64,000 bases of DNA. Origin: Dipteris shenzhenensis (Eukaryota). Position 1 is the first letter of the stretch. Every line of letters starts with the position of its first letter. The translations under genes were made by a program, and so were the position numbers. Location of the stretch: NCBI GenBank assembly GCA_047967505.1, contig CM106538.1, one strand, 5' to 3'. Below, in pieces: positions 5,963-27,940 of the stretch. The notes beneath the pieces were generated by a model that was not told the DNA's origin, searched no databases, and worked only from the letters and a program-made list of their open reading frames with translations.

Positions 5963-7479
5963 GTATCCGTCTAGACTTTCATATATTAAAATTATTAAAA
6001 TTGCTACACCCAACACATTGTGTAGGATATAATTTCTATTGCATTTGAGAAATACATTAATAAATTCTACATATCTTGGTATGTGAACTGTAAAGCGATG
6101 CTGTATTTTTGGCTTGTAGGGCCATGCTGGGCAGGTTGTTTATGTGCTGTGGCCCCAAATACCTTGAAACTGTGTAACGATCATTATAAAACATACAAGT
6201 ACTTTCATAATGTTTAATCTTGTATGCCTTTTTGGCATCTTTTTTCTCACCGCCAGTTTCCTTTCTGCATACCAGTTGGATTTATAGATGTCTTTAGCTC
6301 TCTTTTACCATTTGGCAGTCCTTGAGGGCACAACAACAAATTTTCGACCATGTTCTTTCGGAATTTCGGACAGGCTTGTGGTCCAACCACGGCTGAAAAA
6401 CAGTCTCTTATTTCTTTTCACTGAAAGCAAACTGCCCATAGGCCCTTAGCTAAAGAAGATGGATAGGGATGGTACATGCCAATGTTGCTTGGGTACCCTG
6501 CAAGAGACAATGTAGCATGGCCTATGAAGGTGTTTGACGGTCCAATGGATTTGGAAGGCACATGCCCAGGATCAGGGCACATTTGCTTAGTGAGCCTTGT
6601 GTGTTTAGCTACTAGACAATAAAGACAAGGATGGCTGCATAGAAGCCCTCAAGAAAAAGTTTGAGTTTGAGAAAAATGTCAAATGTAAGTAGTTTTTCTA
6701 TGCATATATAGCTGAGGCTAAGTCAGTAGATGGCTCTAGAATGTTTGTGTGTGCTATTTTTTGCTGCTGCTAGACAGCACAATCCATTATAAAGATGTAT
6801 TTTCATGCTGGGCTGCCATGTGGCAATCTAGGAATAATCCTATAAACATAAGTGTGCTTGCTTTTGCTCGGTTTGGCCCTATAAAAGTACCAGGCGTCTT
6901 TTGTAACATCATCTCCGCAAATTAAAGATTTGTTCAGAGATGGTTAGCACATGTTTGAGCCTAAGTTGCATTAATTTGCTCGAATTTTTTTTTTCGATTC
7001 AAAAAAACGCGAAAAATCGCGATTTTTACAAATTCGAATACGTTCCTTCGATTTTGCATATAATCTCATTGTTTGTCAATTTTTCTTATCTCACGCTTGG
7101 TTCCTCAGCCGAGCATAAGAGATCTAAAAAGGAAAAGAAGGAGTTGTATGCGAGGGGATGGATGGGAGAATATGTCAAGCGATGGGAGAGCGCATATGCT
7201 CGTATCCATCTCGTCTGCTTTTGTATTGAAATCTAGAGCCTTGTGGGCTACAAGTGATGTTGTGTTGTAATTATTGAGATTGTGGATGATTTTTAGAGAC
7301 AATCTTGTGACTTGCAAATACTTTCAAGGCAACATCGAAGGGAACATCAGAAAGTTGAAAAGAATAATCGAATATGCGCAATTGAAGTTTATATTTTCAA
7401 GTCTCAAGGGTTGATCTAGCTATTATGTGTACTAATTCACGTCGATATATTTTAAAATTTCTGCATTAACTTTACAAGT

Positions 7480-7862
7480 CCACCTAATCCATTGAAAACC
7501 ACGTAAATCACTTATACCACTTAGTTCACTTAAATCACTTAAATCACTTAGTCCACTTAAGTCACTTATACCCCTTCATTCACTTAGATTACTTAAATCC
7601 ATAGAAAATTACTTAAATTAATTATACCACTTAGTTCGCTTAGATTGCGTTAATCACTTAAGTTACTTAAATCACCTAGTTCACTTAGATCACTTACACC
7701 ACTTAAATCACTTAGTACACTTAAATCACTTATACCACTTAATTCACTTAGATCACTTAACTTACTTAGTCCACTTAAATCACTTAAGTTACTTAAATCA
7801 TCTAGTCTACTTAGATCACTTATACCACTTAAATCACTTAGTCCACTTAACTCACTTATATG
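7480..7862. repeat. 9-bp-period minisatellite (CACTTAnnn)
   Basis: Runs of cacttaaat/cacttagtc/cacttatac/cacttagat; they produce the repetitive SDLSGLSDLS translation. Confidence 0.9.
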
Positions 7863-7927
7863 ACTTGAACCATCGTTGCAGAAGAAGAGTATTATAAAGT
7901 TATATATGAAGTTTACAATGTACATAA

Positions 7928-8827
7928 TTATGCAGTAGGATCCACATCTACCGTTCCCTGAGTGCTTGGTCCTGCACCCTGCGAATCTATATTAGTGAGG
8001 TCCTCAAAATAAAAAATATCGGTATCCTCAGTTGCATCCAAATCTCCAAAGGACTGTCTGTAGCGTGCAAGCTCAGACTCCAATGTTTGTACACCTGCTT
8101 GTAGGTCCTCGATCTCTTTGGCTTGTGATGCAACGCGATCTTGTAACTTCTCAGCAAGTAACACCTTCTTGACGGAGAGGTATGGCAGATGTGGCCAAGT
8201 CAACAAGATCACTGTGTGCCTCGGGAGTTAACACACGAGGTCTCTGAGACACGGGCTCTCTGTTCTCTGTCCTTGCTCGCTTGCGCTTTGCAGGATGTTC
8301 CTATGCTGTTTCTGACAAGTGATGCTTGTCATTCCAATCCACACGTCGATGCAAGCGTCGTAGACATACACCTGTTGGATGAAATACATGGGTATTTGTT
8401 GGTTATTGGGAATGCTTCCTTCCACCTCTATGAATCGTTGGAGAAGGATGTGGGCTAGGGTTTTGTGCTGCAAATATGACAGCTTGGGCTGTGCATATTT
8501 ATTCCTAGCACTTCCTGAACGAAGAAACAAGGTGTTTCTCACGAACTCTGATGGGCATAGTCTCTGTACTTGTTGAAGAGAGACCGGGTCGCCTTACATG
8601 GTATCATCATCCACTGGACCAGCAGCAAAAATACCTAGTCCCTCTCTGCCCAACATCTCTCTTTGCGCTTGTAAGATAGCCTGAGCCTCAGCGTGATTTA
8701 GCTGGTCTGCTAAATCAGCCTCTTGAGACACAAAAGCATCGTGTGGGCCCTCTTGGATTGGAGGTTGCTCTGGTTGGGGAGGATCTTGTGGGAGAATATT
8801 CTCTAAGTTCTCTCCCTCCATGCTCAT
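7928..8827 (-). pseudogene. hAT cargo ORF-B copy 1: unknown ~295-aa protein with C-terminal coiled coil
   Basis: Pieces 8594-8875, 8228-8542 and 7928-8212 join via one stop and frameshifts (MSMEGENLENILPQDPPQ...LQDRVASQAKEIEDLQAGVQTLESELARYRQ). A near-identical inverted copy lies at 27941-28781. Confidence 0.7.
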
Positions 8828-9262
8828 ACTTAGCCTAAAAAGTGACAACAAGATAAAATTAATTTGTAACCACAAATAATATTAAGTATTTAAACAATAT
8901 TAAACAATTAAATAATATTAAACCTATACAAACATATTTAAATATTTATTGTCGCATCATTTATCATATTTTAAAATTGGACCATCATTTTTATCGCAAC
9001 ATTCAGCTATACAAATAATATTTAAACATTAATTATTGCATCATTTATCATATTTGACAATTGGATCATCATTTTTATCGCATCATTTACTTATACAAAC
9101 AATATTTAAAACATTACTTATCGCATCATTTATCATGTCACTGTAAATATACAAACTGTTCGAACAATGGAGTGGATCCAAACTTGGATGATATATAAAA
9201 CTAAAAATGTTACAAGTTCCATGATCGGTCACTCATGTTACATCCCGGCGTCCAAGAAAGAC

Positions 9263-9793
9263 TCAGTCATTGGCTGGTCTAAGTCCTTGGTTTGGACTGA
9301 GTTGTATACCACATCTTGGAGCAATGTCAGAAATCCCACAAAAATCTGCAGTACTTGGATGTCTATTCGGTTCGGTTGACTTTCCCTGAACCGCAAATCG
9401 TCGTAAACGCCCGATAAGAGCTTCTGCGGGCCCCGTACTTGGCGATTTTCAAGATGTGATGAGACATGGCATACACATCATGTGCAACATCGAAAGGTGG
9501 GGGATTGGTGCAAAGGCACTCTGGAGCAACGTGACGAAATCTAGCAATGGAGCTTCGCACAGTGTTGGGGCTGTCACTGAGTAATGCGGGATAGTGCGTT
9601 CTAGTGCTGCATGGGGTCATCATTCCCCAATCAGAAATGCCCAGATACACCTCCTCGGATGACTCCAAGAAGTGTAGCATAATGTTTTGTGCATGCAAAT
9701 CATTATGTAGGACATTGTGTTGGTGCATGTACTGAATAGTGCGAACTAGTGCACTTAAAATATCAAATACATGCTGACGGACCCGTGGAGCTC
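9263..9793 (-). pseudogene. Cargo protein kinase copy 1, C-lobe
   Basis: YMHQHNVLHNDLHAQNIML, GISDWG, RHVAPE, DVYAMS; continues in frame from 15739 once the Copia and one TSD are removed. Confidence 0.85.
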
Positions 9794-12700
9794 TGTTAGA
9801 ATTATTGTTATAATTTAGCAGTGACCAATGTAATGTAATAAGTAGGTTAGGGGCACTTTTTCCTCATTTTAGAGGTTTTTCCCCCTAACCACAGCTAGTT
9901 CACTAACTACGGTTAGTAAAGGATAAGGTTTTGTCACTTAGACAAAACCTATCCCACTCTTCAGTTGTACTACACTCTTCTATTGCAACTATTGCTTTTA
10001 GCTCTCACTCTCCTACTCTCTTGCTCTCTTGCTCTCACACTCTGCTCTCTCTCCCTCTCCAACTCACATTTGGTATCAGAGCGGTGCTCCTTCCCGGACG
10101 TGCTCTCAGCTCCTTGCCCAAGCTCCTCCTGCAAGTCGAGCTGCCCAAGCTTCTGCTGTTGGATTGTCCCTACAGCCCGTCGCCCATATAATCATACAAC
10201 CGTGCATCGTCGTACAGCCCGTCGCCCGTACAACCGTACATCGTCGTATAGCCCATCGCCCGTACCTTCGCCGTACAGCCATACTGTTTCGTACAGCTGC
10301 CGTACGCTTGTCCGTACCTGCACGCGTTGATAGCGCCATGCGTACGCCCAGTCACTGCTTCAGCCCCTTGCTACGCACGTGATTCGTACAGCAGGCCGAC
10401 TTGTTGTAATTGTTTGTACGTACAAACTTCCAACAGCGCTAGCCAATAGGTCGTTCGTACAGACATTGTTCTGTATAGCTGTCGTACACAGCAGCCCATA
10501 CACAGGAGGGTACCTGTCCATACAACAAGGTTGTACATTCCGTACAGTTTCGTACTTTTGTACAAAGTGTGTCGCCAGCCTTCGTGTGCATTCAAGGTCT
10601 TCCTACAGGTACATTTTGCAGGGAGCTACTGGTTGGTAAATCAAATTTGAGGCAGATTTTTGCTTTGCAGGCCATTTTGTGGGCAGTTTGAACACATTTT
10701 GTGTATTGGGAATTTTGTCAAATTTGGGGCTTTTGCATTTGTTGCAGAGAATTGCAAAAATTTGGGGCTTTTGCAGGCAGAGTGCAATTTGTGCAACATT
10801 TGGGGCTTTTAGACCATTTGCCCCTTTCTAGTTGCAATTTCAAGCCACAAATTGGGGCTTTTGTGTTGGGAGAGCAATTTTGCAGGTTTCAGTTTACACT
10901 GCCTTTCTGTAAGTGTTTTAAAGCACTTTTGGCAGGTTTTGGGAGAGATTGGATGCTCTGGCAGATTTCTGACAGAGACATTACAGAGATTTGAGTTGCA
11001 TTTTCAGCTAGTGCTTGGCTGTATTTTTTGGGACTTGTGCACTCCATTCCCAGCAAGGGAATTCAGATTTGCATTTGCTGTATTTTCTTTCTCAGACATG
11101 GCCCAACAAAATCAGAATGATTTCCAGTTCAGTGGTCTCTCACAAGAGGATAAGCTGGATGGTACCAACTACTCCCTCTGGAGTTTTATTGTACGCAACA
11201 TTCTGATTTCCCGTAATTTGTGGGACTATGTAAATGGGGATGAGATCCAGCCAGCAAATGTGGCACCTAATACCCCTCCCTAGCAAGGAGGAGGCAGAGG
11301 TCGTGCATAGGGTACAGCTGTAGGACAAGTTATTGGTGCAGTTATACCTACCACTCCAGAGCAAAAGAGATGGGATTCATGTGATGCTTTAGCTTTGTCG
11401 TGTATTTCTCTTTCAGTGAAAAGATTCATCATTCCGCATATCCGGTCGTGTAAGACCTCAAAGGCAGCATGGGATATTTTGGAGAGCATGTATGCAGCTC
11501 GGAATGATGCCAGGGTGTCTTTTTTGAAAAGAGAATTGTCTCATACACATATAGAAGAGGGTGACTCCATGTCAGTGCACCTCACAAAGCTACAAGATTT
11601 ACGAGAGCAATTGCTGAATATCAATGAGATCATTCCTGATTCAGAGATAATTACCACCACTCTGAATTCTCTTCCTGAGTCTTATCTCAGCTTTCATACC
11701 TCGCTGAATTTGTCATTGAGGGGGCGTGCAAATCCTCTCAATTTTCAGGAGTTGATAGGACTTCTGTTGCAGGAAGAGCAGACCCAGGAAAAACATGGCT
11801 CACGAGCAGGTGAACATGCCATGCTTTCAAAATTCAAGCCTAAAGTAAAGGGACAAGCAAAGACATCAGCAAATCAGCCTTCCAGTGGTTCAGGAAGCCT
11901 TCTCAAAAGGCTAAGGGTGATGCAGGTAAGCCCAAGAAGAAGGGAATATGCCATTACTGCAAAAAGCCAGGTCACTACATTGGAGAATGCAAGAAGAGGC
12001 TTGCAAAAGAAAAGAAAAACAGCTCCGGTATGGCTGTTTCAGATTCAGCTCCTCATGCATCTGACAATGAGCAAGCTACAGCTAACTTTGTGGAGCACAA
12101 CTATGCCTTCTTGTCTTGCATTTCAGACTCTCAACTGGCTGCTCCGGATATTACAGCCACTTGTAATGATGACTCTTATGCTTTTCTGACATGCAGTTAC
12201 AATTCTTCCTAGGATGCATCAGCTTTCAGTGTCAATGAGACAAAATACATGGTATTTTGATAGCGGTTCCTCAAAGCATATCACTTCCAGGAAGTGTCTT
12301 TTCACATCTCTGCATCCACCTCCCGTTGGTAAAAAGGTCACATGTGCCAACAAGTCCTCCTATTCAGTTCGTGGTACAAGACAAGTTGAACTTACAGCCA
12401 TTGATGGCTCAACTTTCAAAATTTCTGATGTCTTGTATGTGCCTGGTATCACAAAAAATCTACTTTCAGTGTCCACTCTTAACAGAGCTGGATTTTTTGA
12501 AGATGACAAGTGTGCAGTCCATGACAGAGAGCATGACTATGCTTTGAGATTGTCTAGCACTTTGTTACGTGGTCTTTTTCAGCTTGACATGAATGAGAAA
12601 AGACTAGCACATGCTCTTGCAGTTTCCACTCCTACTGCTGCTATGTAGAATGCGGAGTTATGGCATGCCATATATGGACACATGCATTATGGCAGCTTGA

Positions 12701-15700
12701 TGACACTTCAAAAACATGCTATGGTTGATGCATTGCCTCCTCTTGAAACACCTTTTCCACATGCCTGTAAAGGGTGCATTCTTGGTAAAATGCACAGATT
12801 TCCTTTCAAGAAGGATGGATCAGTAAAAGCTGTTCGAAAATTATAGCTTATTCATAGTGATGTTTGTGGTCCCATGAGGACTCCATCATTGGGTGGTCAT
12901 CTTTACTTTGTCACTTTTATAGATGACTACTCCAACTACACTTGGGTTTATGGGCTGAAACGCAAATCAGAAGTGTCTATGGTTTTCAAACACTTTGCAG
13001 CCATGGTTGAAAATGAATCAGGACTCAAGATACATACATTACACACAGATACAGGAGGGGAGTATTTGTCTGCAGATTTTGATGCATTTTTGAAAGACAA
13101 GGGCATTGCACATCAGCTTACAGTGAGGCTAACCCCTCAACAAAATGGCAAAGTTGAGAGAAAAAATCTTACTCTTATGGAGATGGATAGATGCATGCTA
13201 AAAAGCAAAAGATTGCCTCACAAATTTTGGCTTGAAGGTCTCATGTGTGCCAATTATGTTTTGAATGAGGCTCCCACAAAAGCTTTGAAGACCAAGAGGG
13301 AGAAAGCCTTCTGTGAATCATTTTCATGTTTTTGGATGCCTTGCATATGCTTATGTGCCCGTTGAGTTTCGGCATAAGTTGTCTGATAAGGCAATCAAAT
13401 GCATTTTTGTTGGGTACAATGCAGAGAGCAAGGGCTACCGTCTCTACAATCCTGTCACACGCAAGATTATTGTCAGTAGAGATGTTATATTTTCAGAAAA
13501 TTCAGCTCACACTCAAGCTGAATTTGATATGCCTACTTCTTCCGATGATGTCTTTGACGGATTACTACCCATTGCCTTGGGTTCCCCTGCTGATATATCT
13601 GATGCAAATCGAAATTTCCAGATACCTTCACATGCTCCGATTCAGCCACAGGATGTCTTACCACCTCCACAAGCAGTGGAAGAGGTTGTTCAGCAAGAAA
13701 TTGCAGATATACATGCAGTAAAAACAGTTCCAAATTGGCTGTTACAAACTCTCAGGGAGAGTAAAATTGATGCTCCATTACCTGGCAGAACTCGGAGTGC
13801 TGTAAGGCATGGGGGGGGAGCTCTTTCAGTTGAATCAGCTTATGCAGGTACTCTTCTTGATGAGGAGGAGCCTGAGACATTTGAAGAAGCACAGGATAAT
13901 GTGCATTGGATGAATGCCATGCACGATGAATTGCAGTCCATTCAGAAAATTCAGACATGGGAAGTTGTCGATTTGCCACCAGGTAAACATGCCATAGGTA
14001 CACGGTGGGTTTTCAAAGTCAAAAGAAAGCCAAATGGGTCCGTTGATCGGTACAAGGCAAGGCTGGTTGCAAAAGGATATGCTCAGAAAAAGGGCATAGA
14101 CTATGAGGAGACTTTTGCTCCTACATCCAAAATGACAACCATCCGGTCAGTTATAGCCATGGCTGCAAATTTTGAATGGAATATTCATCAGTTGGACATT
14201 AAAACAGCTTTCCTTAATGAAGACTTGTTGGAAGAGGTTTATGTCAAACAACCTCAGGGCTTTGAAATTTCAGGAAATGCACTTCAGGTATGCAAGCTGA
14301 ATAAAGCTTTGTGTGGGCTGAATAAAGCTTTGTGTGGACTGAAACAAGCCCCACGTGCATGGTATGCCAAAATTCATGCCTTTCTGACCAGCAAGGGGCT
14401 GCACAATAGTCCAAGTGAGAGCACCCTCTACATCAAGAAGGATGGGGGGGATATTTTAGTCATCATTCTTTATGTAGATGACTTACTGCTCACATGGTCA
14501 AATGAGGATAATTTTGCAGATTTTAAAGCTGAATTGCAGACCACTTTTGACCTGTCAGATTTGGGGCTGCTACACTTTTATTTGGGGATCCGGTTCACTC
14601 AAGAGAAAAGTGGCATCGTTATGTCTCAATCCAAGTATGTGCAGAAACTCTTGGATAGATTCAACATGCAGGATTGTAAGCCCATAGCTACTCCCATGGA
14701 GTCGGGGCTGAAGCTTACAATGCACGATGGAGGTGAATCAATTGATGTCACACTCTACAGTCAAGCTGTTGGATGCCTCAGTTATCTTTGCAATACACGA
14801 CCTGATATTCAGTTTGCAGTTTCTCAGGTGAGCAGATATATGCACAGCCCAAAGACTATGCATTGGCAGGCTGTAAAACGCATCTTCCGTTATTTGCAAG
14901 GTACAAAGTCTTTTGGCTTGATGTTTCCCAGGGGGGGTGACTTGCAGATGCATGCCTACAGTGACTTAGATTGGGTTGGAGACTATGACACTAGGCAGTC
15001 CACAAGTGGCAATTGTTTCTTTTTGGGCAAAGCTTGTATTTCTTGGTTAAGCAAGAAACAGTGTACAGTGGCTACCTCCTCATGTGAAGCTGAGTACAGG
15101 GCAGCTTTCATAGCGACAGTTGAATGTGTTTGGCTGCGTCGTTTATTTGCTTATCTTCATCTTTCATTGGAGGGTCCTTCTCTAATTCTCACTGATAGTC
15201 AGAGTGCTAATGCAGTGGCAAAGAATCGTGTGTTTCATGCTCGCACGAAGCACATTGAGGTTCACTATCACTACGTTAGAGAGAAGTTGCATGCAGGAGA
15301 GATCAGTATGATCTATGTGTCAACACATGACAATGTTGCAGACATTTTCACCAAAGCACTTTCACGTGAAAAGTTTGAGGCATTTCGCAATGCCCTGAAC
15401 TTATCTCCTTTTGGTGATTGATCATTTCCTTGTACATGACATTGGCACTGCAGGGGGGTGTTAGAATTATTGTTATAATTTAGCAGTGACCAATGTAATG
15501 TAATAAGTAGGTTAGGGACACTTTTCCCTCAATTTAGAGGTTTTTTTCCCTAACCACAGTTAGTTCACTAACTACGGTTAGTGAAGGATAAGGTTTTGTC
15601 ACTTAGAGAAAACCTATCCCACTCTTCAGTTGTACTACACTCTTCTATTGCAACTATTGCTTTCAGCTCTCACTCTCCTACTCTCTTGCTCTCCTGCTCT

Positions 15701-15733
15701 CACACTCTGCTCTCTCTCCCTCTCCAACTCACA
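9794..15733 (+). mobile_element. Full-length Ty1/Copia LTR retrotransposon (decayed ORF)
   Basis: 275-bp TG..CA LTRs (9794-10068, 15459-15733); TSD AGCTC; PBS TGGTATCAGAGC at 10071 (tRNA-iMet); PPT aggggggg. Domain order gag, PR (WYFDSG), IN, RT (YVDD), RH; several stops and frameshifts. Confidence 0.97.
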
Positions 15734-15738
15734 AGCTC

Positions 15739-16300
15739 TAGCTGGCATTTCCGCATCATCTTTGTGAAACACCGGAGATGGTCGCTTTCTGTCATGTCCG
15801 AGGTAGGTTAGCCATCTTTCTAAATGATTTCCATTCCAGAAAAAAATAGTATCATTGGGTTATTGTCATAGACTAGACCTATTGCTCGGATGATGCCCGG
15901 ATGTACGACATCGCCCAAGCATGTGGCTTCTTCCAATGCGTTGGCCTTCAATGCATCAATGGACACAGAAACCCTCAGCACCTTACATGCATAAATCTTG
16001 TCTCTTTCAAAGGGAGTGACAAGAATATTGCACATGCTGACTGTTCCTTTCGTGCCTATGCCCACAGCTGCACTAGGTGTGAATCAGATGTCTCGTCGCT
16101 GAAGCAGTATTGGTCGCATGGGTCTTGGCACTTCTACATGATCACACAAGCCATGTGATGTGCTGGTCGCATGGGTCTTGGCACTTCTACATGATCACGC
16201 AAGCCATGTGATGTGCGCGGTGCTTGTGCAGGCGAGAATAAAGGAGATGGGAATGTATCTGCTGGTGCAGATAGATTGTGCATTTGTGGTGCAGGCGAAA
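15739..16300 (-). pseudogene. Cargo protein kinase copy 1, N-lobe
   Basis: GIGTKGTV (Gly loop), YACK, EE, HPGIIRAIG; frameshift in the A-run near 15845; then FWNGNHLERWLTYLGH...MPARA. Confidence 0.85.
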
Positions 16301-16424
16301 ATACGGGAGATGAAAACTAATCTGCACGTGTGGTAGGAGGCATAAATGGAGGCACAAAAGATGTGAAATGTGATCGTGCATGTGGTGGGAGATGTGAAAA
16401 ATGTTTGTTTGTAGGAACTCTTGG

Positions 16425-16770
16425 ACTGGCACTTATCTCTCTTAAGAGAGTTGTGTGTTACAGTCCAAGCTTAGTGATGTTTTCATAGATGCTTATTCTG
16501 GCACTCATCTCTCCCTTGAGAGTTGTGTGTTACAGTCTAAGTTTAGAGATGTTTTCAAGTACTTAGTCTGGCACTCAACTGTCCCTTGATAGTTGTGTGT
16601 TGCAGTCTAAGTTAGATATCATGCGACGTTGTCTTAGACACTTAGTCTGGCACTCAACTGTCCTTGGATAGTTGTGTGTTGCAGCCTAAGTTAGAAATCA
16701 TGCGATGTGCTTTTAGACACTTAGTCTGGCACTCAACTGTCCCTTGATAGTTGTGTGTTGCAGTTGAAGC
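16425..16770. repeat. Tandem array of five 70-79-bp units in the palindrome spacer
   Basis: ctggcact(c/t)a...agttgtgtgtt(a/g)cag at about 16426, 16498, 16568, 16647 and 16726. Confidence 0.85.
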
Positions 16771-16873
16771 CTAGTGTTAGATGGTGAAGTCCACGATTAG
16801 GTTATACCTAGGTCATTTTTTGTGTTTTGATTTTCTATAGTATGTTACATGATTTAAGGCTTGAGCTTGAGTT

Positions 16874-17186
16874 GAGAGGTTATACCTAAGTAATTTCTTA
16901 GACTGCTTGCATTGATTTTCTTATTGCACATGGCACTGAATTCTTTTTTGAATTCTGTGTTGCAGCTTACTGCATATGAGATGGCTCACGCAGGTGAGAA
17001 GTTGAATTCTTTTTTGAATTCTGTGTTGCAACTTACTGCATATGAGATGGCTCACGCAGGTGAGTAGAGAGGTTATATCTAAGTAATTTCTTAGATTGCT
17101 TGCATTGATTTTCTTATTGCACCTGGCATTGAATTCTTTTTTGAATTCTGTGTTGCAGCTTACTGCATATGAGATGGCTCACGCAA
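16874..17186. repeat. Nested direct repeats (three ~65-bp units; two ~130-bp units)
   Basis: tgaattcttttttgaattctgtgttgca(g/a)cttactgcatatgagatggctcacgca at about 16938, 17003 and 17130. Confidence 0.85.
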
Positions 17187-17676
17187 TCTCACAAAGTCTT
17201 AGAGGAAGGTGCTGAAAAACGAGAATGTACACTTCTTAATAAATGTCGATCAGGACATCATTGAGATAGCTTTCCAAAATGGTGAAAATGGTGTACAAAA
17301 TTTGGTGAGGACAATGGCAGAGCGTGAAGGGAGGACCTGCGTGATCGATTTTCAGATGTTTTCATAGTAGTCTATAGACCAGTATTTGTACCACTTAGCG
17401 ATGGAGGGCCGAGGATAACTCGGTCATATGTTGCATTCCACCCAATGCACCCACGTCCCCAGTCATATGTCGCATTCCACCCAACGTAGCCGCAAGCACC
17501 ACTGCAGCCACGCCACGCGTATGCACAAGTGCATCCACCACAACATATTGAACCCCGTATCCCTTTTTTTAAGATCTTTCATACCTAGAAGTTCTTCCTC
17601 CTTTTTCACATCTCCCACCACATGCACGATCACATTTCATCACATCTTTTGTGCCTCCATTTGTGCCTCCCACTGC

Positions 17677-18144
17677 ATGCGCAGACCAGTTTTCATCTCC
17701 TGTATTTTCGGTCGCACCACAAATGCACAATCTATCTCACAAGCAGATACATTCCCATCTCCTTTATTCTCGCCTGCACAAGCACCACGCACATCACATG
17801 GCTTGCGTGATCATGTAGAAGTGCCAAGACCCATGCGGCCCATACTGCTTCAGCGACGAGACATCCGATTCATGCCTAGTGCAGCTGTGGGCACAGGCAC
17901 GAAAGGAACAGTCAACATGTGCAATATTCTTGTCGCTCCCTTTGAAAGGGACAAGATTTATGCATGTAAGGTGCTGAGGGTTTCCGTGTCCGTTGATGCA
18001 TTGAAGGCCAACGCATTGGAAGAAGCCACATGCTTGGGCGATGTCGTACATCCGGGCATCATCCGAGCAATAGGTCTAGTCCATGACGATAACCCAATGA
18101 TACTATTTCCGTTCTAGAATGGAAATCATTTAGAAAGATGGTTA
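17677..18144 (+). pseudogene. Cargo protein kinase copy 2, N-lobe
   Basis: VGTGTKGTV, IYACKVL, ALEEA, HPGIIRAIGLV; inverted repeat of 15809-16330; premature stop at 18115-18117. Confidence 0.85.
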
Positions 18145-18465
18145 TTGGACCATCATTTTTATCGCAACATTCAGTTATACAAATAATATTTAAACATTAA
18201 TTATTGCATCATTTATCATATTTGACAATTGGATCATCATTTTTATCGCATCATTTACTTATACAAACAATATTTAAACATTACCTATCGCATCATTTAT
18301 CATGTCACTGTAAATATACAAACTGTTCGAACAATGGAGTGGTGGATCCAAACTTGGATGATATATAAAACTAAAAATGTTACAAGTTCCATGATCGATC
18401 ACTCATGTTACATCCCGGCGATGATATATAAAACTAAAAATGTTACAAGTTCCATGATCGATCAC

Positions 18466-19112
18466 TCATGTTACATCCCAGCGTCCAAGAAAGACTGAGT
18501 CATTGGCTGGTCTAAGTCCTTGGTTTGGACTGAGTTGTATACCACATCTTGGAGCAATGTCAAAAATCCCACAAAAATCTGCAGTACTTGGATGTCTATT
18601 CGTTTCGGTTGACTTTTCCTGAACCGCAAATCGTCGTATACGCCCGATTAGAGCTTCTGCGGGCCCCGTACTTGGCAATGGTGCACAAATGTTCAAGATT
18701 TTCAGGATGTGATGAGACATGGCATACACATCATGTGCAACATCGAAAGGTAGGGGATTGGTGCAAAGGCACTCTGGAGCAACATGACGAAACCTAGCAA
18801 TGGAGCTTCGCACAGTGTTGGGGCTATCACTGAGTAATGCGGGATAGTGCTTTCTAGTGTTGCATGGGGTCATCATTCCCCATTCACAAATGCCTACACC
18901 TCCTCGGATGACTCCGAGAAGTGTAGCATAATGTTTTGCGCATGCAAATTATTATGCAGGACATTGTGTTGGTGCATGTAATGAATAGTGCGAACTAGTG
19001 CACTTAAAATATCAAATACATGCTGACGGACCCATGGAGCTCTAGCAGGCATTTCCGCATCATCTCTGTGAAACACCGGAGATGGTCGCTTTCCATCATG
19101 TTCGAGATAGGT
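18466..19112 (-). pseudogene. Cargo protein kinase copy 2, C-lobe (inside an inverted segment)
   Basis: YMHQHNVLHNNLHAQNIML, RHVAPE, DVYAMS, RHPSTADF; opposite orientation to its own N-lobe. Confidence 0.8.
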
Positions 19113-19511
19113 CTAGAACAATTTGCAAAGATAAGTTCATTCCATTATTATCCTGCAACAATCTGTATATTCAAGCATGAGATCAAGTATTTGATTGAGT
19201 CCGAAAGACTCAATCATTATGTCCATGGAAAGCATAAGATATCCTCAACATCAGAGGTCTTACAGAAGGCAAGGGTTATATGGACAACATTTGGTTCTCC
19301 AAATCCTAATTTGAAGCGAAAGGTCACAAAAACAGACGCAGACACACTCACGAACTTCTATACTTCTTTGAGTGCAGTTGTGCCTAGGGGAACTCAAGAG
19401 CGAGAAGAAAGTATGACAAGCCTCAAGGTGGTGAGGGACAAATATGCGGACTACACTTCTATCATATTTCGTCCTGTTGAAGTGTTCAATGAGATGCTTG
19501 AAACGTGCATT

Positions 19512-22500
19512 GATTTTGGACTGGTTTTTCAGCCTCCTTCAGCTGAATTCCGTTTTTCTTCATAACTCCTCACCCGTTTGGATTCCTCAACTTTCGTTTG
19601 GCCCGATGGCTTCCCCTCTGCCTCCCCTTCGTAGTGATATGCTTTTCCCTCCGTGTGTTTGGTAGAACGGGCAGAGCTGAGCACTTCTTTTGCTGGTCGA
19701 ATTTGTAAAAGTGGCTTTTTCTGGACCTTTTTTCTTCTACCGCCTCTTGGGCCTCTCCTCTTGCAAAGCTACAGCTTTCTGTTGAATTTCGAGTGGTCCG
19801 ACGCGCTGGTTGACTGGTTTTTCTCAGTTTTGGAGGACTTTCCGGCGATGAAACTTCTCCAAAACCTTCTCAATGCATTCCTCTCTGAAGCACGCTTCTT
19901 TTAAGCCCAAGAACTCCCACTTCTTCGCGACAGAAGTGCTTCTTTTCGCATTTTTAAGTGGAATTCTTGCTGGTCGGCTCTTGTAAATGCTCTTTCTTCA
20001 TGCCTTTGCACTCCTCTTTGGCTGAGAATGCAATTGGGCATTGGCTACTATGTCCTCTTGGCGATTGAGGACTTGGTTCGAGTTTTCAGGGCTTGGTGAG
20101 TTGTGATTTTGCTACTGCAATTTCTTTTTGCCATAAGCTATTGGTTGGCCTCGTGTGCCGCCTCTTTCTTGGCTCACAGGTGCCCAGGCAGTGCTACATG
20201 AGTCATTCTTTGGTTGGGTACTTTGCTGATTTTATTTTGGAGCTTTGAAAAGCTTTGTGAATGCCATCTGGAAACCACTCAAAGAGAGTGCAGCTGGGGT
20301 GCAGTGTGATTGCATCTGGACAGCCAATGGAATTGCACTCGGAAAAGAGAATGCCTTTGGGTTGAGCCTATGGGTTAAGTGCACTTATGTGATGGTGTTC
20401 TATTCTTGAAAGCCTTGCGAAGGCTTAGTGAATTGGGGCTGCGTGCTCAGTTGCAGGGAAGGTCTCCCAGATGCAACTTGTAATCATTTCACTGTGAAAT
20501 ATAAAGAAATACCGAAAGGGGCGCCACGGTGTTTGGGGCCAATCGGGTGCACTTGTCTATGTCTGTTGAGCAGGGGCATTCTAGCCTCCATCCCTTTTTC
20601 AGTGGTTTTGTTTGTGAACAAATGGGTAAATGCCAAATGGTGATCATGCAATGGTTAATGGTTGTGATATATGCTTTGTGAGCTGTAAATAAGTACTGAA
20701 GTGATTAAAGGTTTAGTTCCATTGCCCTCTGAGTGATTAGAGGCCGGTTTCATTGGTTCCGTTGCCGGGACACCACACACTCTTTGTCAAGAGGTGGGCC
20801 TCGGTAGTTTGGTGGAAGGATATCTTTGCTGCACTTTTTGACAGCTGAATATTACAACCATAAACATGGTGAGTACCCATGAGCAAGAGAGCTCCACAAC
20901 TCCTCAAGCCTTAATGATCCAGCTAGTGTACAGCTGCAGGGAGCACAACAAATGCCTTTTGAGCAAGCCACACATGAAGCTACAACTGAGCTCAACGGTG
21001 ATACTAGTTCTAGCAGTGAGTCAGATGATGCTACTATGTTGAGTGCACAGCTTGCAAGTGCAGTGACTGCTTTGACTCAGCTGGCTCAAAATTTGGCTCA
21101 GATTGTGCAAACAAATGCCAAGAAGAAGAAGAAATCAAGAAAGCACAAGAACGGAAAGAGTGAGTACACACATGCATCAGCTTCTCATGGCAGACCGCAC
21201 ACTAATGCATCAGTTTCCCATGAGGGACAGCCATCAAAAATGACTCAGAAAGTGACTTCCAAGAGAGAGGAATCGCCCAAAAGAGCACTTGAGAAAGAGG
21301 TACAAAAAGTACATCCAGTGCAACAGTATGAGCAGCCAGCACAAGGCCTTGGTTTGGGTATTTCTACTCCTCAAAATAATAATGTGCAGTCCATAAATGT
21401 GGCTCAACCACCTCAGCCATATTTGAGGCAGCAACCTGAATATTTTGGTACAGATTCTATCTTTGATGCTATGTTGATTTCACCGCCAATTGGGCATAGA
21501 AAGCAAGCCATGTATGACAATGTGGGAATGCAGCCAGGCATGCAAGCCACAGCATATGCTCCCAAGCCTAATGTTCAGCCAAGCATGGCTCTCCCTAGTG
21601 AAGGGAATGCTGCAAATATACAGCCATCTTTGGGACAGCCAATATCAAATGTATATAAAGAATTTAAGGATGGTGGTTCTCATGTCAAGTTTGATACATA
21701 TAATGGAGTACAGGACAGGTACAAAGCCCTCACATTCCTTCAACAGTTTGATGCTGCATTTCTTGGGGGTTTGTTTACAGAAGCATCCAAGATGAGGAAG
21801 GTTGCCACATTTTTGAAAGGCAATGCACTTAAGTGGTACACTAACCTTATGCTTCATGGAGATGCACCTGCTACTTGGCTGGAATTTAAGCAAGTGTTCT
21901 CTTCTACTTGGCTTACTCCAACTTTTGAAGTTGAAGTACTTTCACACTGGCATGACTTGTCATACAAACTTTGCAAGAATCTTGATGATTACACCCAGAG
22001 GTTTTGGGATGTTTTGCTACCATTGAGCTCTTACAGGCATGTTTCTTTGAAAGAGCAAATAGAGAGGTACTGTTGTGGATTGCCTAGTGAGCTACGTGAT
22101 TATTGCATCAAAACCAAGGTGGGTTCTATGACTTAATTAATTGAGAATGCAAGGACAGCATATGCATGGATGCAGGAGAAGAATGTGGGCTTTATGGACA
22201 GCAAGAAAGAAGACAACAAATGGGCTGCCAAACACCAGGATAAGGACATCAAATCTGAAAATAAAAATTATGGCAAATGACCGTTTCAAAAGGGAGGAAA
22301 AGCCCAATTCAAAGCTGGTCAAAGGCGTGGACAGCCTAATAAACAGCCCCGTACCAAGTTATCTGATGAAGAGAAAAAGTCACTCATGGAGCAAAACAAA
22401 TGTTTTATATGCAAAGAAGAGGGACACCGCTCTTATGATTGCCCATTCAAGAAAAGAGACAGGTCAGATGATGATAAGAATGGTGATAAACAGGCTGATC

Positions 22501-25500
22501 GGAAGGGCAAAAAGCCTAAACCTTCTGCAGGACTTCTTCCAGATGTGATTGGGAGTTTGCCACATGCACATGATGAAGAGGAAATGAAAAAGACTGAGAT
22601 GTGCAGAGCATGGGGAAAAATCAGAAATCAGAATTGTTTGTTTTTCTTTGATTCTGGGGCAAAGGCAAATTTCATAACTCCTGATATGGCAGGAAGGCTT
22701 GGCATCGAGCCTGAGGAAATGGGGCCATCCGGCATGTGTGAAATGGCCAACCCTGAAGTCAACACACCTGTCACTCCTATCATTGGCAAGTTGAGGATGC
22801 ATATCCAGGAATATCAGGATGCAGAGGACTTCTACATTATGCCTTTGCCAGAGTGCGATGCTTTGCTTGGGATGCCTTGGATGTACAGGGTGGGGGTTGA
22901 TGTGCAGATGAGAAACAAGAAGATTTCTATAACTCATAGAGGCAAAAATCATGTACTTGATGTAAAGTTGAAAGGGGAGTCCATCCCTGTAGTTTCAGCT
23001 TCTTGTATTTCCAATGTAATAAAGCGTCATATTTCAGCGTACTTGATTTTTGTCACAGAGGACAGCCAACCAGTTCAGGAGGGCTCTACTCTTTCTGCTT
23101 TAGATAGAGAAAGGGCTGCTTTTATTTCAGATTTTCAGGATTGTTTCTCAGATGCACTTCCTCAAGAATTACCTCCCAAGAGGCCCGAGGATCATCAAAT
23201 TGATATAATTCCAGGAAGCTCACCGCCTAATATACCTCCCTATCGTGTCAGTAAGGCACAACAGGAAGAGATAATGTCACAAGTGAAGGAACTCTTAAAA
23301 AAGGAATTAATACAGCCAACTTCCAAGTAATTCTCCTTACTGTTTCCCTGTGTTGCTTGTGCAAAAGAAGGATGGCAGTTGTGTATTGATTATAGGGCTT
23401 TGAATAAAGTCACAATTAAGAACCGTTTTCCAATTCCACGCATTGATGATATATTGGATCGGTTGGAAGGTTCCTCAATGTTCAGTTGTATTGACCTTAA
23501 AAGTGGATACCATCAGATAAGGATACGGCCTGAAGATGTCTACAAGACTGCCTTCCGCACTTCATTTGGCTTATATGAGTTCCTTGTGATGCCTTTTGGT
23601 TTGACTAACGCACCTGCCACTTTCAATAGAATGATGGACAGAATTTTTAGAGCACACAGAAAGTTTGTGGGCACTTTCTTCGATGACATCATTGTGTTCT
23701 CTAAAAATGAGCAGGAGCACAGGAAACACCTCACTATTGTGTTTCAAGAGTTGAAAAGACACAAGCTATTAATAAACACCAAGAAAAGTGAGTTCTTTAT
23801 GCATGAGATTCATTTTCTTGGTCATATAGTGTCAAAGGATGGAGTCAAGATGGATCCTGCAAAAGTTGAGGCCATAAGGAGTTGGCCAATTTTGAGAAAT
23901 CTGCATCAAGTCAGAAGCTTTCTTGGGTTGTGTTCATACTATCGGAGGTTTATAAAGTACTTTGCAGAAATTGCTTCTCCCTTGCATGCTTTACAAAAGA
24001 AAGCTGTACCGTTTCGGTGGGGACCAAAGGAGAATGCAGCTTTTGAAGAGCTGAAGCAAAAGTTGTGTTCTGAACCCGTTATTATCTTGCCAGATCTTGC
24101 AAAACCCTTTGCTGTAACTTGTGATGCATGTGGAAACAGCATAGGAGGCACTTTGATGCAGGATGGCAGAGTGGTTGCATATGAGAGTAGAGTTCTCAAA
24201 GATGCTGAATTGTACTTGCAGATATACGAGAAGGAAATGTTAGCAGTGATACATGCTTTGACCACATGGAAACATTACCTTCTTGGAGCTGATTTTTATG
24301 TGCAGACAGATCATCAGTCACTTAGATATTTTCTCACGCAGAGAAAATTATCTGAAAAGCACATGAGATGGGCTAACTTCCTCTCAATGTTTCATTTTCA
24401 AATTGTACATGTGCCGGGTAACAAAAATGTCGTGGCTGATGCACTTTCCAGGAAACCACAGCCTGAAGCAGTCTCCAAGAAACCCAGTGTTTCAGCAGTG
24501 AGCATTGCTTACAACAATGTGTTAGATGTGATGAAAGATCAGTATGTTAATGATGCTGATTTTTCAACTATTTATGATCAGCTTTCTGATGGTCAAAGGC
24601 ATGATCACTATATGTTGAAAGAGGGTTTCATTTTGATGCATGGACGACTCTGTGTCACTGATCAGATGCGACAGAAAGTCATAATGGAAAGTCATGCTCC
24701 TCCATAGGCAGGACATAGGGGAATTACAGCAACAATTACAGCAGTGGAGCAATACTTTTATTGGCCATCTTTGAGGAAAGATGTGGAAGAATATGTGAGA
24801 ACATGCATGGTTTGTCAGAAAGTAAAGTTTGACAGGCAGAAGGCACCTGGGTTGTTACACCCTTTGCCAATTCCGGATAGACCATGGCAAAGCATAGCTA
24901 TGGATTTTGTGTTTGATCTTCCACGTACTCCTACTGGACATGATGGATTGTGGACAATAATTTGCAGGTTTAGCAAACAAGCCCACTTTGTGCCAGTAAG
25001 AAAGAAAATTACAGCAGATCAAATGGCCAAATTGTTTTTGCAGCATGTCTTCAAGTATCATGGGATGCCTGAATCCATAATCAGTGATAGAGATCCGAGG
25101 ATGACCAGCCTCTTTTGGAGAGGACTGTTTGAAAATATGGGCACTACGCTGAATTTTTCATCATCTTTTCACCCTCAGTCTGATGGACAATCGGAGCAGG
25201 AAAACTCTACCATCTTGGATATGTTTAAATGCTATGTCTCAGACCACAAAAGCAAATGGGATATATACTTACAATAATACGGTGCACACATCCACAGGTA
25301 AAGCACCTTTTGAAATAGTGGAAGGTGCCAGGAAGATACCTCCCATTTTGCATAGAAAAGAGAAAATCTTCGAAGCTGATCGTTTTGTGGAAAGCCTTGA
25401 AGAGGCTTACAAGAAGATCAAATATGCCTTGCAAAGAAGTGAAGACAAGCAGAAAAGAGCAGCAGATAAGCACCGCAGGGAATTGCTATTCACAGAAGGT

Positions 25501-27940
25501 GATTGGGTTTTGCTGCGTTTTCAGAAGGCAAGGCTGAAAAATAAGAAAGGCAAGGAAAGGTTGTACACAAAGCTGAACATGCGTTACTATGGTCCTTTCC
25601 AGGTTTCTGAAAAGATAAACGAGGTAGCTTGAAGTTGCCTCCGCATTGGAAGATACATAATGCCTTTCATGTGAGTTTATTAAAGCAATATCATGGAGAT
25701 ATTCCCGAGGATGTACCTGATGAGGTGCAGCCTGAAGTGGAAGAACAGGATGAACTTCTGGTCCCAGAGCAGATTCTGGCACACAGAGATAGAAAGCTCA
25801 AGGGTAAAGTTATCCGTCGCTACTTGGTAAAATTTCAAAATTACCCATCACTTGATGCGAAATGGATGGAGGAAGGTGAACTGGCAGATTCACATGGGAT
25901 ATTGCAGCTTTACCTTGATGCTTTCCAATTAGAGCCGACTACGGTCCGGGCTCCTACAGGTAGTTCAACAGAGCGAGCGTCTGGAGCATTACCTGATGTT
26001 TGAGAGGGGGGTAGCACCTCCACTCCCTCAGTACAGACGGGCTCACTGTGATTTCATGAGGTCGCTTGATGACACTGTATGTTTCATCCGAGATACTGAG
26101 CTGACAGTATTTCTGCTGTGAGACTTCATGATATTGATGCATCTTGACTATTGATCGCCGAGGATCACATAGATTTTGAGCAGTATATATGGATGGATGC
26201 ATGCCTCTCCTAGCCATATTTTCATGGTCTCTGTATACTATAGCTGCGGCTTTCTTGTATACTCTTTTATGCTATATTTCATGCTCGCTCCTGTGTTTTG
26301 GGGCAGCAAACTGTGGTTTGCTGTTTCAAGAGAGGGGTATGTCACGGGGGCGTGAAATTCTAAGTACTTTAATGTACTACTAGACCGTGACAACTTTGGT
26401 TTTAAAAGTCCAAGCGTGGGCTTAATAATGTGTAATTAAACGCGGCATGGTGCCTAGCACATAAGCGTAATTAATCCCTAGGCCCAAAGGCATTCCAAGG
26501 AATTAAAAGAGTGGTTGTTGGGAAATGATGATGTGGCATTTTTAATGGGCCCCCTAGAGGGCCATGTACCTTCAGTGGCCCCCCTAGAGTTCCAGGTGGC
26601 TCTAGTGCCTTCTACATGCTCCTTTGCCATTCCTGGACCTTCCTGGGCCTTCTAAACTTCACATGTGTGGTTTTCTCTCTCATCTTCTCCCTTTGTTGAG
26701 ATTTTGGACTGGTTTTTCAGCCTCCTTCAGCTGAATTCCGTTTTTCTTCATAACTCCTCACCCGTTTGGATTCCTCGACTTCCGTTTGGCCCGATGGCTT
26801 CCCCTCTGCCTCCCCTTCGTAGTGATATGCTTTTCCCTCCGTGCGTTTGGTAGAACGAGCAGAGCTGAGCACTTCTTTTGCTGGTCGAATTTGCAAAAGT
26901 GGCTTTTTTTGGACCTTTTTTCTTCTACCGCCTCCTGGGCCTCTCCTCTTGCAAAGCTACAGCTTTCTGTTGAATTTCGAGTGGTCCGACGCGCTGGTTG
27001 ACTGGTTTTTCTCAGTTTTGGAGGACTTTCCGGCGATGAAACTTCTCCAAAACCTTCTCAATGCATTCCTCTCTGAAGCACGCTTCTTTTGAGCCTAAGA
27101 ACTCCCACTTCTTCGCGACAGAAGTGCTTCTTTTCGCATTTTTAAGTGGAATTCTTGCTGGTCGGCTCTTGTAAATGCTCTTTCTTCATGCCTTTGCACT
27201 CCTCTTTGGCTGAGAATGCAATTGGGCATTGGCTACTATGTCCTCTTGGCGATTGAGGACTTGGTTCGAGTTTTCAGGGCTTGGTGAGTTGTGATTTTGC
27301 TACTGCAATTTCTTTTTGCCATAAGCTATTGGTTGGCCTCGTGTGCCGCCTCTTTCTTGGCTCACAGGTGCCCAGGCAGTGCTACATGAGTCATTCTTTG
27401 GTTGGGTACTTTGCTGATTTTATTTTGGAGCTTTGAAAAGCTTTGTGAATGCCATCTGGAAACCACTCAAAGAGAGTGCAGCTGGGGTGCAGTGTGATTG
27501 CATCTGGACAGCCAATGGAATTGCACTCGGAAAAGAGAATGCCTTTGGGTTGAGCCTATGGGTTAAGTGCACTTATGTGATGGTGTTCTATGCTTGAAAG
27601 CCTTGCGAAGGCTTAGTGAATTGGGGCTGCGTGCTCAGTTGCAGGGAAGGTCTCCCAGATGCAACTTGTAATCATTTCACTGTGAAATATAAAGAAATAC
27701 CGAAAGGGGCGCCACGGTGTTTGGGGCCAATCGGGTGCACTTGTCTATGTCTGTTGAGCAGGGGCATTCTAGCCTCCATCCCTTTTTCAGTGGTGTTGTT
27801 TGTGAACAAATGGGTAAATGCCAAATGGTGATCATGCAATGGTTAATGGTTGTGATATATGCTTTGTGAGCTGTAAATAAGTACTGAAGTGATTAAAGGT
27901 TTAGTTCCACTGCCCTCTGAGTGATTAGAGGCCGGTTTCA
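19512..27940 (+). mobile_element. Ty3/Gypsy chromovirus, 5' LTR truncated
   Basis: 3' LTR 26340-27940 (TG..CA, after PPT aagagagggg); 5' LTR remnant 19512-20752 equals 26700-27940. Gag with CFICKEEGHRSYDC, PR FDSGAK, RT FFDD, RH, IN, and chromodomain EQILAHR..YLVKFQNYPSLDAKW. Confidence 0.95.
20754..20771 (+). promoter_or_regulatory. Primer-binding site, tRNA-Glu-like
   Basis: TGGTTCCGTTGCCGGGAC follows the LTR CA after a 1-nt gap; its reverse complement GTCCCGGCAACGGAACCA matches the plant tRNA-Glu 3' end as I recall it. Confidence 0.75.

Follow-up and report, generated by a model that had tools for sequence, protein, structure and literature searches.

Two decayed copies of an intronless protein kinase gene, a candidate member of an undescribed eukaryotic family, at a transposon-rich locus of Dipteris shenzhenensis

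Layout of the kinase locus

Examination of a 64,000-nucleotide (64-kb) stretch of the Dipteris shenzhenensis genome (NCBI GenBank assembly GCA_047967505.1, contig CM106538.1), referred to here as the window, reveals two disrupted copies of an intronless protein kinase gene between positions 8976 and 19112. The window is eukaryotic and transposon-rich, with 36-48% G+C and coding remnants of Copia, Gypsy and hAT types, and an Rfam scan over its whole length gave 0 matches. By searching the kinase fragments across the whole window with tblastn, exactly two gene copies were found, namely copy A on the minus strand (8976-16401) and copy B (17602-19112), which are about 95% identical. The repeat map resolves this arrangement into a direct repeat, in which 8976-9794 together with 15734-15808 corresponds to 18144-19112, and an inverted repeat, in which 15809-16401 corresponds to 18144-17602. 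Copy A is made up of the following parts.

8976-9262, minus strand: 3' untranslated part of copy A, ending in AT-rich 84-bp tandem units (period 84 bp in Tandem Repeats Finder, TRF).
9263-9442, minus strand: C-terminal tail, PSTGPAEALIGRL...RHPSTADF...GLRPAND, with the TGA stop at 9263-9265.
9444-9793, minus strand: C-lobe, with alphaE, HNDLHAQN, ISDWG, HVAPE and DVYAMS in the translation.
9794-15733, plus strand: Copia-type long terminal repeat (LTR) retrotransposon inside the open reading frame (ORF) of copy A, with LTRs at 9794-10068 and 15459-15733 and ends TG..CA.
15734-15846, minus strand: hinge segment, FWNGNHLERWLTYLGHDRKRPSPVFHKDDAEMPARA, shifted in frame relative to the N-lobe by a 1-nt deletion in a T-run.
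15847-16119, minus strand: N-lobe, starting at the first Met (MRPILLQRRDI*F...) and carrying VGIGTKG, YACK, EEAT and HPGIIRAIG.
16120-16401, minus strand: 5' flank, the inverted-repeat arm common to copy B.

The reading frame of copy A is interrupted by a premature TGA at 16084-16086 in the N-lobe (CGA>TGA, codon 12), by the 1-nt deletion near 15845, by the Copia element at 9794-15733, and by a 20-nt deletion near 9443 that leaves the tail and the C-lobe in different frames. In the 5' region of copy A there is a tandem duplication of 53 bp at 16111-16216. About 290 bp of copy A sequence follow the stop codon; self-BLAST aligns 8976-9250 with 18144-18420 at 97.5% identity, and the likeness to copy B ends at about 8976. 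Copy B is arranged differently, as an N-terminal part and a C-terminal block on opposite strands.

17602-17832, plus strand: 5' flank of copy B, the inverted counterpart of 16165-16401 at 92% identity.
17833-18143, plus strand: N-lobe with the first part of the hinge, MRPILLQRRDIRFMPSAAVGTGTKGTV...PMILFPF*NGNHLERW, matching Pfam Pkinase at 2.1e-5.
18144-19112, minus strand: hinge, C-lobe, tail and 3' untranslated region, a block inverted relative to its own N-lobe.

At the inversion breakpoints of copy B no base has been lost or gained, and flipping the block restores ...GATGGTTA joined directly to ACCTATCTCG.... The remaining damage to this copy comprises a hinge Trp turned into a stop (TGG>TAG at 18115-18117), changes at two catalytic positions (HNNLH, with D>N in the catalytic loop, and ICEWG, with D>E in the DWG motif), a 4-nt deletion near 18893, a lost stop codon (TGA>TCA) and a 63-bp tandem duplication at 18357-18483.

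These observations were extended with DNA contigs of a related organism (run X1; word share 0.06, no placed contig at least 99% alike), whose depth and cover are not readable as copy number. The contigs contain pieces of the kinase, of the spacer between the copies and of the sequence beside copy B, and leave 7000-9525 and 15420-16261 without cover. One of them, 273 nt long, joins 18141 to 19112 on opposite strands, which is the uninverted and intron-free order of the gene.

Motifs and catalytic features of the kinase

Restored across its breaks, the gene has about 306 codons and encodes a single kinase domain, the whole ORF running from Met to stop and starting 18 residues ahead of the first Gly of the Gly-loop. 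A search of the 1290 ORFs of the window revealed no N-terminal extension (best E 1.3). An earlier reading of this DNA, made from its letters alone and called here the sequence-only reading, had listed a series of kinase motifs, and the translations confirm all of them except PFWNG, which as written occurs in neither copy, copy B having PF*NG and copy A having FFWNG in a shifted frame. YACK, EE(AT), HPGIIRAIG, HVAPE, DVYAMS and RHPSTADF are found in both copies; VGTGTKGTV is found only in copy B, copy A having VGIGTKGTV, and YMHQHNVLHNDLHAQN with ISDWG only in copy A, copy B having HNNLHAQN and ICEWG. Because the motifs are split between the two, the complete kinase domain that had been assembled by joining fragments stands as a whole domain and falls as a single sequence, being a composite of copies A and B. 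The descriptions of the gene as intronless and of both copies as disrupted hold: the read-through translation, in which X marks each break, can be aligned over its full length with the family proteins described below, the 273-nt contig joins 18141 to 19112, and separate lesions are present in A and B.

Pfam searches with seven fragments placed one above the Pkinase cut-off, three below it (1.1e-6, 2.1e-5 and 5.4e-5) and three in no kinase family, the other fragments falling under the cut-off because they are short. The fragment above it, the ORF at 9363-9863 that encloses the C-lobe of copy A, matched Pkinase at 4.4e-11 with 43.1 bits (cut-off 31.7) and PK_Tyr_Ser-Thr with 36.6 bits (cut-off 23.1), and this ORF also includes 23 LTR-derived and about 25 out-of-frame residues; the N-lobe of copy A is the one that matched Pkinase at 1.1e-6. 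Judged by profile and by its Asp/Asn, Gly-loop and APE features, the window gene belongs to the eukaryotic protein kinase (ePK) domain (PF00069/PF07714).

The N-lobe marks of ePKs are kept in both copies and fall in family-conserved columns, namely the Gly-loop G(T/I)GTKG, the beta3 Lys (YACK) and the alphaC Glu (EEAT). The Asp and Asn of the catalytic loop are kept in copy A (HNDLHAQN), and the Asp is lost in copy B (HNNLHAQN); likewise DFG appears as DWG in copy A, with Asp and Gly kept and Phe replaced by Trp, and as EWG in copy B. The APE motif (HVAPE), the alphaF Asp (DVYAMS) and NRHP, aligned to the family RP and its subdomain XI Arg, are present. The Arg of HRD is replaced by Asn and the catalytic-loop Lys by His, so that neither the Arg/Lys pattern of ePKs nor the AAR/RAA of Tyr kinases is found, and the description as an atypical non-RD kinase with His for the loop Lys and DWG is borne out. 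Going by these motifs, the intact ancestor would have been a soluble, single-domain, active phosphotransferase. Non-RD kinases are not known to depend on activation-loop phosphorylation, and the ancestor, being non-RD, would presumably have had no need of it.

An unnamed family of kinases

To place the gene among known proteins, a profile of 193 positions (A1), built from the two C-lobe rows of the window itself, was searched with HMMER against 1,835,955,588 representative proteins. This gave 71 hits at E<=1e-3, of which 15 reached 1e-10 and 0 reached 1e-30, the best having an E-value of 3.9e-26. Since only 71 hits emerged from a collection of this size, the gene lies far from mainstream kinases. 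By motif, HN[DN][LFI] occurs in 40 of the hits, HNDxH in 15, HNDx[STN] in 19, DWG in 31 and HND together with DWG in 25; canonical kinases with H[RGSC]D..K/R account for 17 of the 71.

The closest relatives form what we call the H-type family (P0001-P0010, P0013-P0018, P0074, P0079, P0088-P0091 and others), and its members share a distinctive set of motifs along the whole domain. In the N-lobe these are G[ER]GAF[GA], a conserved Lys, EAT, H[RMP]GI[IV] and the hinge [YFL]WNGG, and in the C-lobe HND[LF]HxxN[IV].LHF, VY.G[IV][AG]DWG, [VM]APE, RP and a C-terminal SGLRPF[DENQ][ED] followed by the stop codon. The motifs of the window gene fall in conserved columns of the family alignment (A3), and the tail of copy A ends where the family proteins end, at GLRPFDE/D and stop. 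All 12 of the 12 members in a further alignment (A2) match Pkinase and PK_Tyr_Ser-Thr, the best at 8.4e-18. The relationship was further strengthened by blastp of the window read-through, which is 30-34% identical over about 300 residues (E 1e-38 to 1e-51) to H-type members of full or nearly full length and extends to their C-termini; the shorter fragments P0003, P0004 and P0020 align only in part. The C-lobe alone is about 40% identical to the best relatives.

A maximum-likelihood tree of 32 rows, including five canonical outgroup domains, unites the window gene with the H-type family (support 94/82), recovers a second, S-type clade (98/92) and sets all of these apart from the five outgroups (100/99). 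A long stem, 1.31 changes per column, leads to the two window sequences, and the tree tool warns of long-branch joins. The S-type sister clade comprises kinases of about 500 residues with a long N-terminal region of their own (P0039, P0042, P0045, P0063, P0049, P0068, P0069 and P0043; alignment A4) and with the motifs HNDLSPxN.MLHF, [IV]CDWGM, WWNGGS and a C-terminal CFRxTxI.

Long H-type forms (443-473 residues) consist of a helical N-terminal domain of about 120 residues, a low-confidence linker of about 30 residues and then the kinase. An AlphaFold2 model of P0002 has a bilobal kinase fold at a mean predicted local distance difference test (pLDDT) score of 85.2, and the helical domain was modelled at 84.7 (models m1531472805e9 and mf2eee025abe3; P0002, P0005, P0007, P0074 and P0077). 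A Foldseek search of this N-terminal domain against PDB gave 0 matches at E<=0.001, the best having E 0.98 and a template modelling (TM) score of at most 0.34. Taken together, these results suggest that the window gene branches deeply within an undescribed family of eukaryotic kinases, a statement that forms part of the overall reading for which a single probability is given below.

Proposed duplication and independent decay

No lesion is common to the two copies, and for this reason the frame of their common ancestor, about 306 codons long, must have been open. Both copies are dead and have decayed independently. Between them 38 of 822 aligned coding nucleotides differ, distributed 11/12/15 by codon position, and 29 of the 38 differences are transitions. 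The ratio of non-synonymous to synonymous rates (dN/dS) is 0.53, from 24.5 non-synonymous and 13.5 synonymous changes; with so few changes and so strong a transition bias, it is near-neutral and not clearly different from neutral decay. The sequence-only reading had named neutral evolution with no intact member as an outcome that would count against its view of the gene, and within the window that is what these figures describe, neither local copy being intact.

The origin of the pair would lie in a local head-to-head duplication of a unit of about 1.5 kb, made up of about 280 bp of upstream sequence, the ORF and about 290 bp of downstream sequence. Copy A would then have decayed through the Copia insertion and three small lesions, and copy B through the internal inversion, the stop codon, the 4-nt deletion and the loss of two catalytic Asp residues. 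The divergence is 4.6% between the kinase copies, 3.6% between the Copia LTRs and 1.0% between the Gypsy LTRs, which, with equal rates assumed, orders the events as duplication, Copia insertion and Gypsy insertion.

Where the family occurs

The H-type members that were looked up are all nameless and all derive from Logan or ENA assemblies. For the S-type members looked up, the sources are JGI/IMG, ENA and Logan, with NCBI in addition for two of them; they bear generic automatic labels only and lie on contigs of up to 17 kb. In a collection of about 15 billion proteins, no informative name or organism was found for the H- or S-type members looked up. The best relatives are short intronless ORFs on contigs of 1.4-3.2 kb. 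A protein-atlas search with the window fragment led to generic kinase clusters only, full-text literature searches for the family's motif strings found no description, and a survey of the literature on transposon-borne kinases and on captured or additional ORFs did not find the kinase family.

Further scans covered metagenomes, viral contigs and prokaryotes. With A2, the JGI metagenome scan gave 596 pattern matches and one relative (L001) and no true member; L001, an unrelated 798-residue kinase with HNDLNAKN and DFG, was set aside. Among prokaryotes, represented by one genome each of 185,579 species, 600 pattern matches included no true member and one relative at 26% identity (L003), which by its motifs HNDFHPKN and IDWE we take to be an aminoglycoside-phosphotransferase-type protein.

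The preponderance of environmental and SRA assemblies, together with the intronless and informatively nameless state of the family, would fit a remnant of an endogenised virus, such as a relative of giant viruses, or a gene that was traded with them. One neighbouring cluster in the protein atlas is viral to 83%, no more than a lead, and an IMG/VR contig (L002) encodes at 9143-11254 a 704-residue kinase whose loop reads HNDLHTGN and whose hinge reads YFNGG, beside a ribonucleotide reductase small chain, a helicase, glycosyltransferases and DUF5767. This kinase, however, is a weak relative only: the H-type profile gives it 22.4 bits, the S-type profile does not score it, and it has DFG in place of DWG; it was the one weak relative among 437 pattern matches in the IMG/VR viral contigs, which contained no true member, and the S-type profile gave 0 of 44. 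No viral gene was seen near the kinase copies in the window, and we consider a viral source improbable.

The origin of the gene as a captured fragment or retrocopy of an intron-containing host kinase, later duplicated, is in our judgement the least probable of the explanations considered. Its intronless and compact unit and the transposon-rich region are features that Pack-type capture or retroposition could leave. Against this, no parent was found: a word-based search for longer relatives of the C-lobe returned 91 candidates, 0 of which scored, and the best relatives, at 30-34% over the domain and about 40% in the C-lobe, are themselves short intronless ORFs. The gene is, moreover, a complete ORF from Met to stop and no fragment, and the ends of the unit show neither a poly-A tract nor a target duplication. 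The sequence-only reading had doubted that the gene is a captured host exon, and the 0 of 71 hits at 1e-30 and the 30-34% identity of the full-length relatives support it in that the gene is no recent capture of an annotated host kinase.

Transposons and other sequences around the kinase

The features that lie between and beside the kinase copies, apart from the Copia element listed above, are as follows.

7037-8881, unstranded: left copy of a hAT-like element, an internal-deletion form without the counterpart of 29082-32951, with an ORF (ORF H) on the minus strand.
16402-17601, unstranded: spacer of 1.2 kb between the head-to-head copies, with 72/79-bp and 66/193-bp tandem repeats (TRF and self-comparison).
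19113-19510, plus strand: sequence X, flanking copy B and without a counterpart beside copy A.
19511-27940, plus strand: Gypsy-type LTR retrotransposon beside copy B, with 1241-bp LTRs that are 99% identical.

The Copia element has LTRs of 275 bp that are 96% identical, and its insertion is marked by a 5-bp target site duplication (TSD), AGCTC, at 9789-9793 and 15734-15738. In copy B the corresponding point of the ORF carries AGCTC just once and thus preserves the empty Copia site. Because of the AGCTC duplication and this empty site, the kinase gene is to be seen as the target of the Copia element and not as its cargo. The element encodes gag-protease-integrase-reverse transcriptase-RNase H ORFs at 11311-15421. 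The best match of its pol ORF is an unnamed JGI protein at 69% identity, and named plant, algal and oomycete proteins reach only 33-50%.

The Gypsy element, a young one, is flanked by TGCAT and GCAAC and has no target duplication. Its two sides were probably not neighbours originally, and the mismatch of the flanks points either to two elements having recombined or to a rearrangement at a later time. A contig of run X1 lying on 19341-19512 continues for 31 further letters that do not fit the Gypsy LTR. Sequence X, which is partly covered by a contig of the related organism, contains an open frame of more than 130 residues (…LIESERLNHYVHGKHKISSTSEVLQKARVIW…) at 19113-19510, for which no Pfam family and no counterpart elsewhere in the window were found. 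The spacer at 16402-17601 has no counterpart in either inverted-repeat arm.

The hAT-like element is present in two inverted copies that are about 93% identical, at 27941-33058 and 7037-8881. The right copy has transposase ORFs matching DUF659 (2.2e-34) and the hAT dimerisation domain Dimer_Tnp_hAT (2.7e-8), and only kinase copy A is abutted by the element, through the left copy on its 3' side. Both copies share ORF H (MSMEGENLENILPQDPP...QGDPVSLQQVQRLCPSEF...), at 8826-8228 on the minus strand and 28008-28490 on the plus strand, for which a Pfam search found no family; the right version is interrupted by internal stops and, at a point matching 8769, by the Gypsy insertion. The left copy contains a 9/18-bp tandem array of about 41 units at 7496-7866, and the right copy a satellite-like array of about seven 144-bp units near the transposase, at 31550-32825.

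The sequence-only reading had taken the kinase to be a dedicated accessory gene borne by a transposon, a claim that the evidence from the ends of these elements does not sustain. Terminal inverted repeats (TIRs) and an 8-bp target duplication were looked for at the hAT-like copies and not found. Local alignment of every plausible end pair, namely the outer hAT ends against the inner kinase-arm ends, the hAT end against the AT-rich boundary, and the unit's own two ends against each other, gave scores within the range of 200-300 shuffles, and a k-mer search found no inverted partner anywhere in the window for the candidate terminus on the hAT side (33050-33075). No target duplication, poly-A or CACTA-type ends were found at the flanks of the 1.5-kb kinase unit, and no helitron end signatures were seen there. 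The only LTR pair that encloses kinase sequence is that of the Copia element inserted in the ORF; the Gypsy element stands beside copy B, and the hAT-like element touches copy A only.

It is nevertheless possible, if unlikely, that the kinase was cargo of a mobile element, either as a non-autonomous cassette of 1.5 kb or as part of the hAT-like element, with copies A and B as two decayed insertions. The unit has sharp ends and different flanks (J/H beside A, X beside B, and a differing 5' spacer), the inversion breakpoint of copy B coincides with its 3' end, and copy A lies 150 bp from ORF H of a hAT-like element that exists in autonomous and deleted forms. An ancestral ORF that was intact at the duplication and decayed later in both copies, a family that is intronless and missing from named proteomes, and the occurrence of pieces of the unit in contigs of a related organism would also suit such cargo. 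Set against these points, no TIR, LTR or TSD surrounds the unit or the unit plus hAT-like element, all four comparisons of outer with inner ends and three further end comparisons lying within shuffle scores, the terminus k-mers lack an inverted partner in the window, and helitron, CACTA and poly-A end signatures were not seen. The copies number only two and lie 1.2 kb apart, head to head, for which a single local inverted duplication suffices. Only one of the kinase copies shows the hAT link: copy B and the right hAT-like copy are separated by the Gypsy element, whose flanks do not match, and the adjacency of these two is for that reason secondary.

Interpretation of the locus

The reading that we prefer is that the locus holds two pseudogenes of a stand-alone intronless kinase gene, locally duplicated and belonging to an undescribed eukaryotic family, and that the transposons of the interval are later insertions or neighbours and not carriers of the kinase. 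We assign this reading, taken jointly with the family placement proposed above, a probability of roughly 0.55.

Several observations weigh against it. The unit is compact and extends only about 280 bp beyond the ORF in either direction, its ends are sharp and its flanks differ at the two copies, and the right breakpoint of the copy B inversion falls exactly at the 3' end of the unit; both would fit a small mobile cassette. The X1 contigs hold kinase, spacer and X pieces and nothing over 7000-9525, which is a hint only. The count of two copies refers to the 64-kb window. An ordinary host gene would not usually belong to a family without a single informatively named member in the collections searched, a state that suits genes masked or overlooked during annotation. 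Finally, the activity of the ancestor is read from motifs, and the His in place of the loop Lys together with Gln at +4 could mean a pseudokinase.

The locus in itself is ordinary, consisting of two dead gene copies amid nested retrotransposons, and the family is the part worth keeping. It appears as a conserved intronless clade of eukaryotic kinases with HND and His for Lys, DWG, WNGG and a fixed C-terminal GLRPFxx, accompanied by a sister clade and by a new helical N-terminal domain; if active, it would constitute a new branch of the kinome. We entertain with considerable doubt the broader idea that HND-H/DWG kinases are selfish or mobile intronless single-ORF cassettes that move, or are moved, between genomes and so escape curated annotation. 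Copies A and B would then be what is left of such a cassette, maybe mobilised in trans by a DNA transposon such as the hAT-like element nearby. If this were true, eukaryotes would offer an instance of a kinase that serves as dedicated cargo of transposons, and a family travelling with mobile elements would offer a rare example of a eukaryotic enzyme in that role.

Comparison with known systems

Among solved structures the nearest are tyrosine kinases (FGFR2, MET, MerTK and Abl), at only 13-18% identity; FGFR2 is the nearest PDB entry by sequence (3.6e-14), and FGFR2, MET and MerTK are the nearest by fold, at about 1e-11 with the model of a family member. AAR/RAA and PxxW are marks of Tyr kinases, and the window gene, unlike these enzymes, has neither. 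With the ePK superfamily at large it shares, in aligned positions, the Gly-loop, beta3 Lys, alphaC Glu, catalytic Asp and Asn, Mg-binding Asp, APE, alphaF Asp and subdomain XI Arg. It differs from ePKs in having HND for HRD, His for the loop Lys of Ser/Thr kinases or the Ala of Tyr kinases, DWG for DFG, and a WNGG-type hinge.

CK2 is constitutively active and was not among the best 60 PDB matches; human CK2alpha resembles the window gene in having Trp for the Phe of DFG, and no specific relationship is seen. In human CK2alpha, D175 stands in a DWG motif (PMC10108397), and DWG is therefore compatible with an active kinase.

The H-x-D-L-H-x-x-N loop without Lys is shared with the Kdo/WaaP, APH and EcKL families (PF06293, PF01636 and PF02958). 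The C-lobe of copy A gives sub-threshold Pfam matches to Kdo (7.4e-4), EcKL (2.5e-3) and APH (4.5e-3), with Pkinase scoring far higher, and 4 of 12 family members match APH and 2 of 12 Kdo, all below the curated cut-offs. Unlike those families, the kinases described here have the APE, alphaF and subdomain XI features of true ePKs.

The comparison with Crinkler-type kinases drawn by the sequence-only reading fails, as neither a Crinkler header nor another N-terminal domain is present, and the window fragments and the 12 family members contain kinase-like Pfam families only. An MLKL-like architecture, with a four-helix bundle of MLKL/HeLo type ahead of the kinase, proposed from protein-atlas neighbours, was also discarded: the N-terminal domain of the long family forms has 0 PDB matches at E<=0.001, and the window has no such domain (best E 1.3). 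The kinase domain of SPOK gives resistance and is said to be closer to eukaryotic-like kinases (PMC6660238), and the Spok meiotic-drive genes of Podospora are reported to be carried on the giant transposon Enterprise (PMC8092012). Nothing nearer in concept was met with in the literature searched, and the likeness to the window gene would be one of concept only, that of a kinase-domain gene travelling with a mobile element, and is offered as an analogy with no claim of relationship. The fungal SPOK proteins are multi-domain, with a coiled coil, a nuclease, a Cys cluster and a kinase, unlike the single-domain window gene, and in contrast to Spok on Enterprise no carrier element has been demonstrated around the window kinase.

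The closest comparison is with the H-type family itself. The window gene departs from it in the Gly-loop (GTGTKG against G[ER]GAF[GA]) and in the last residue of the hinge motif (FWNGN, not WNGG), and from most of its members in having Gln and not Arg/Lys at +4 of the catalytic loop. It agrees with the family in the hinge region as a whole, the catalytic loop, DWG, APE, the C-terminal GLRPxxx and an alignment that runs from end to end, and the short H-type forms without an N-terminal extension, such as P0001 (308 residues) and P0088 (313 residues), share its single-domain plan.

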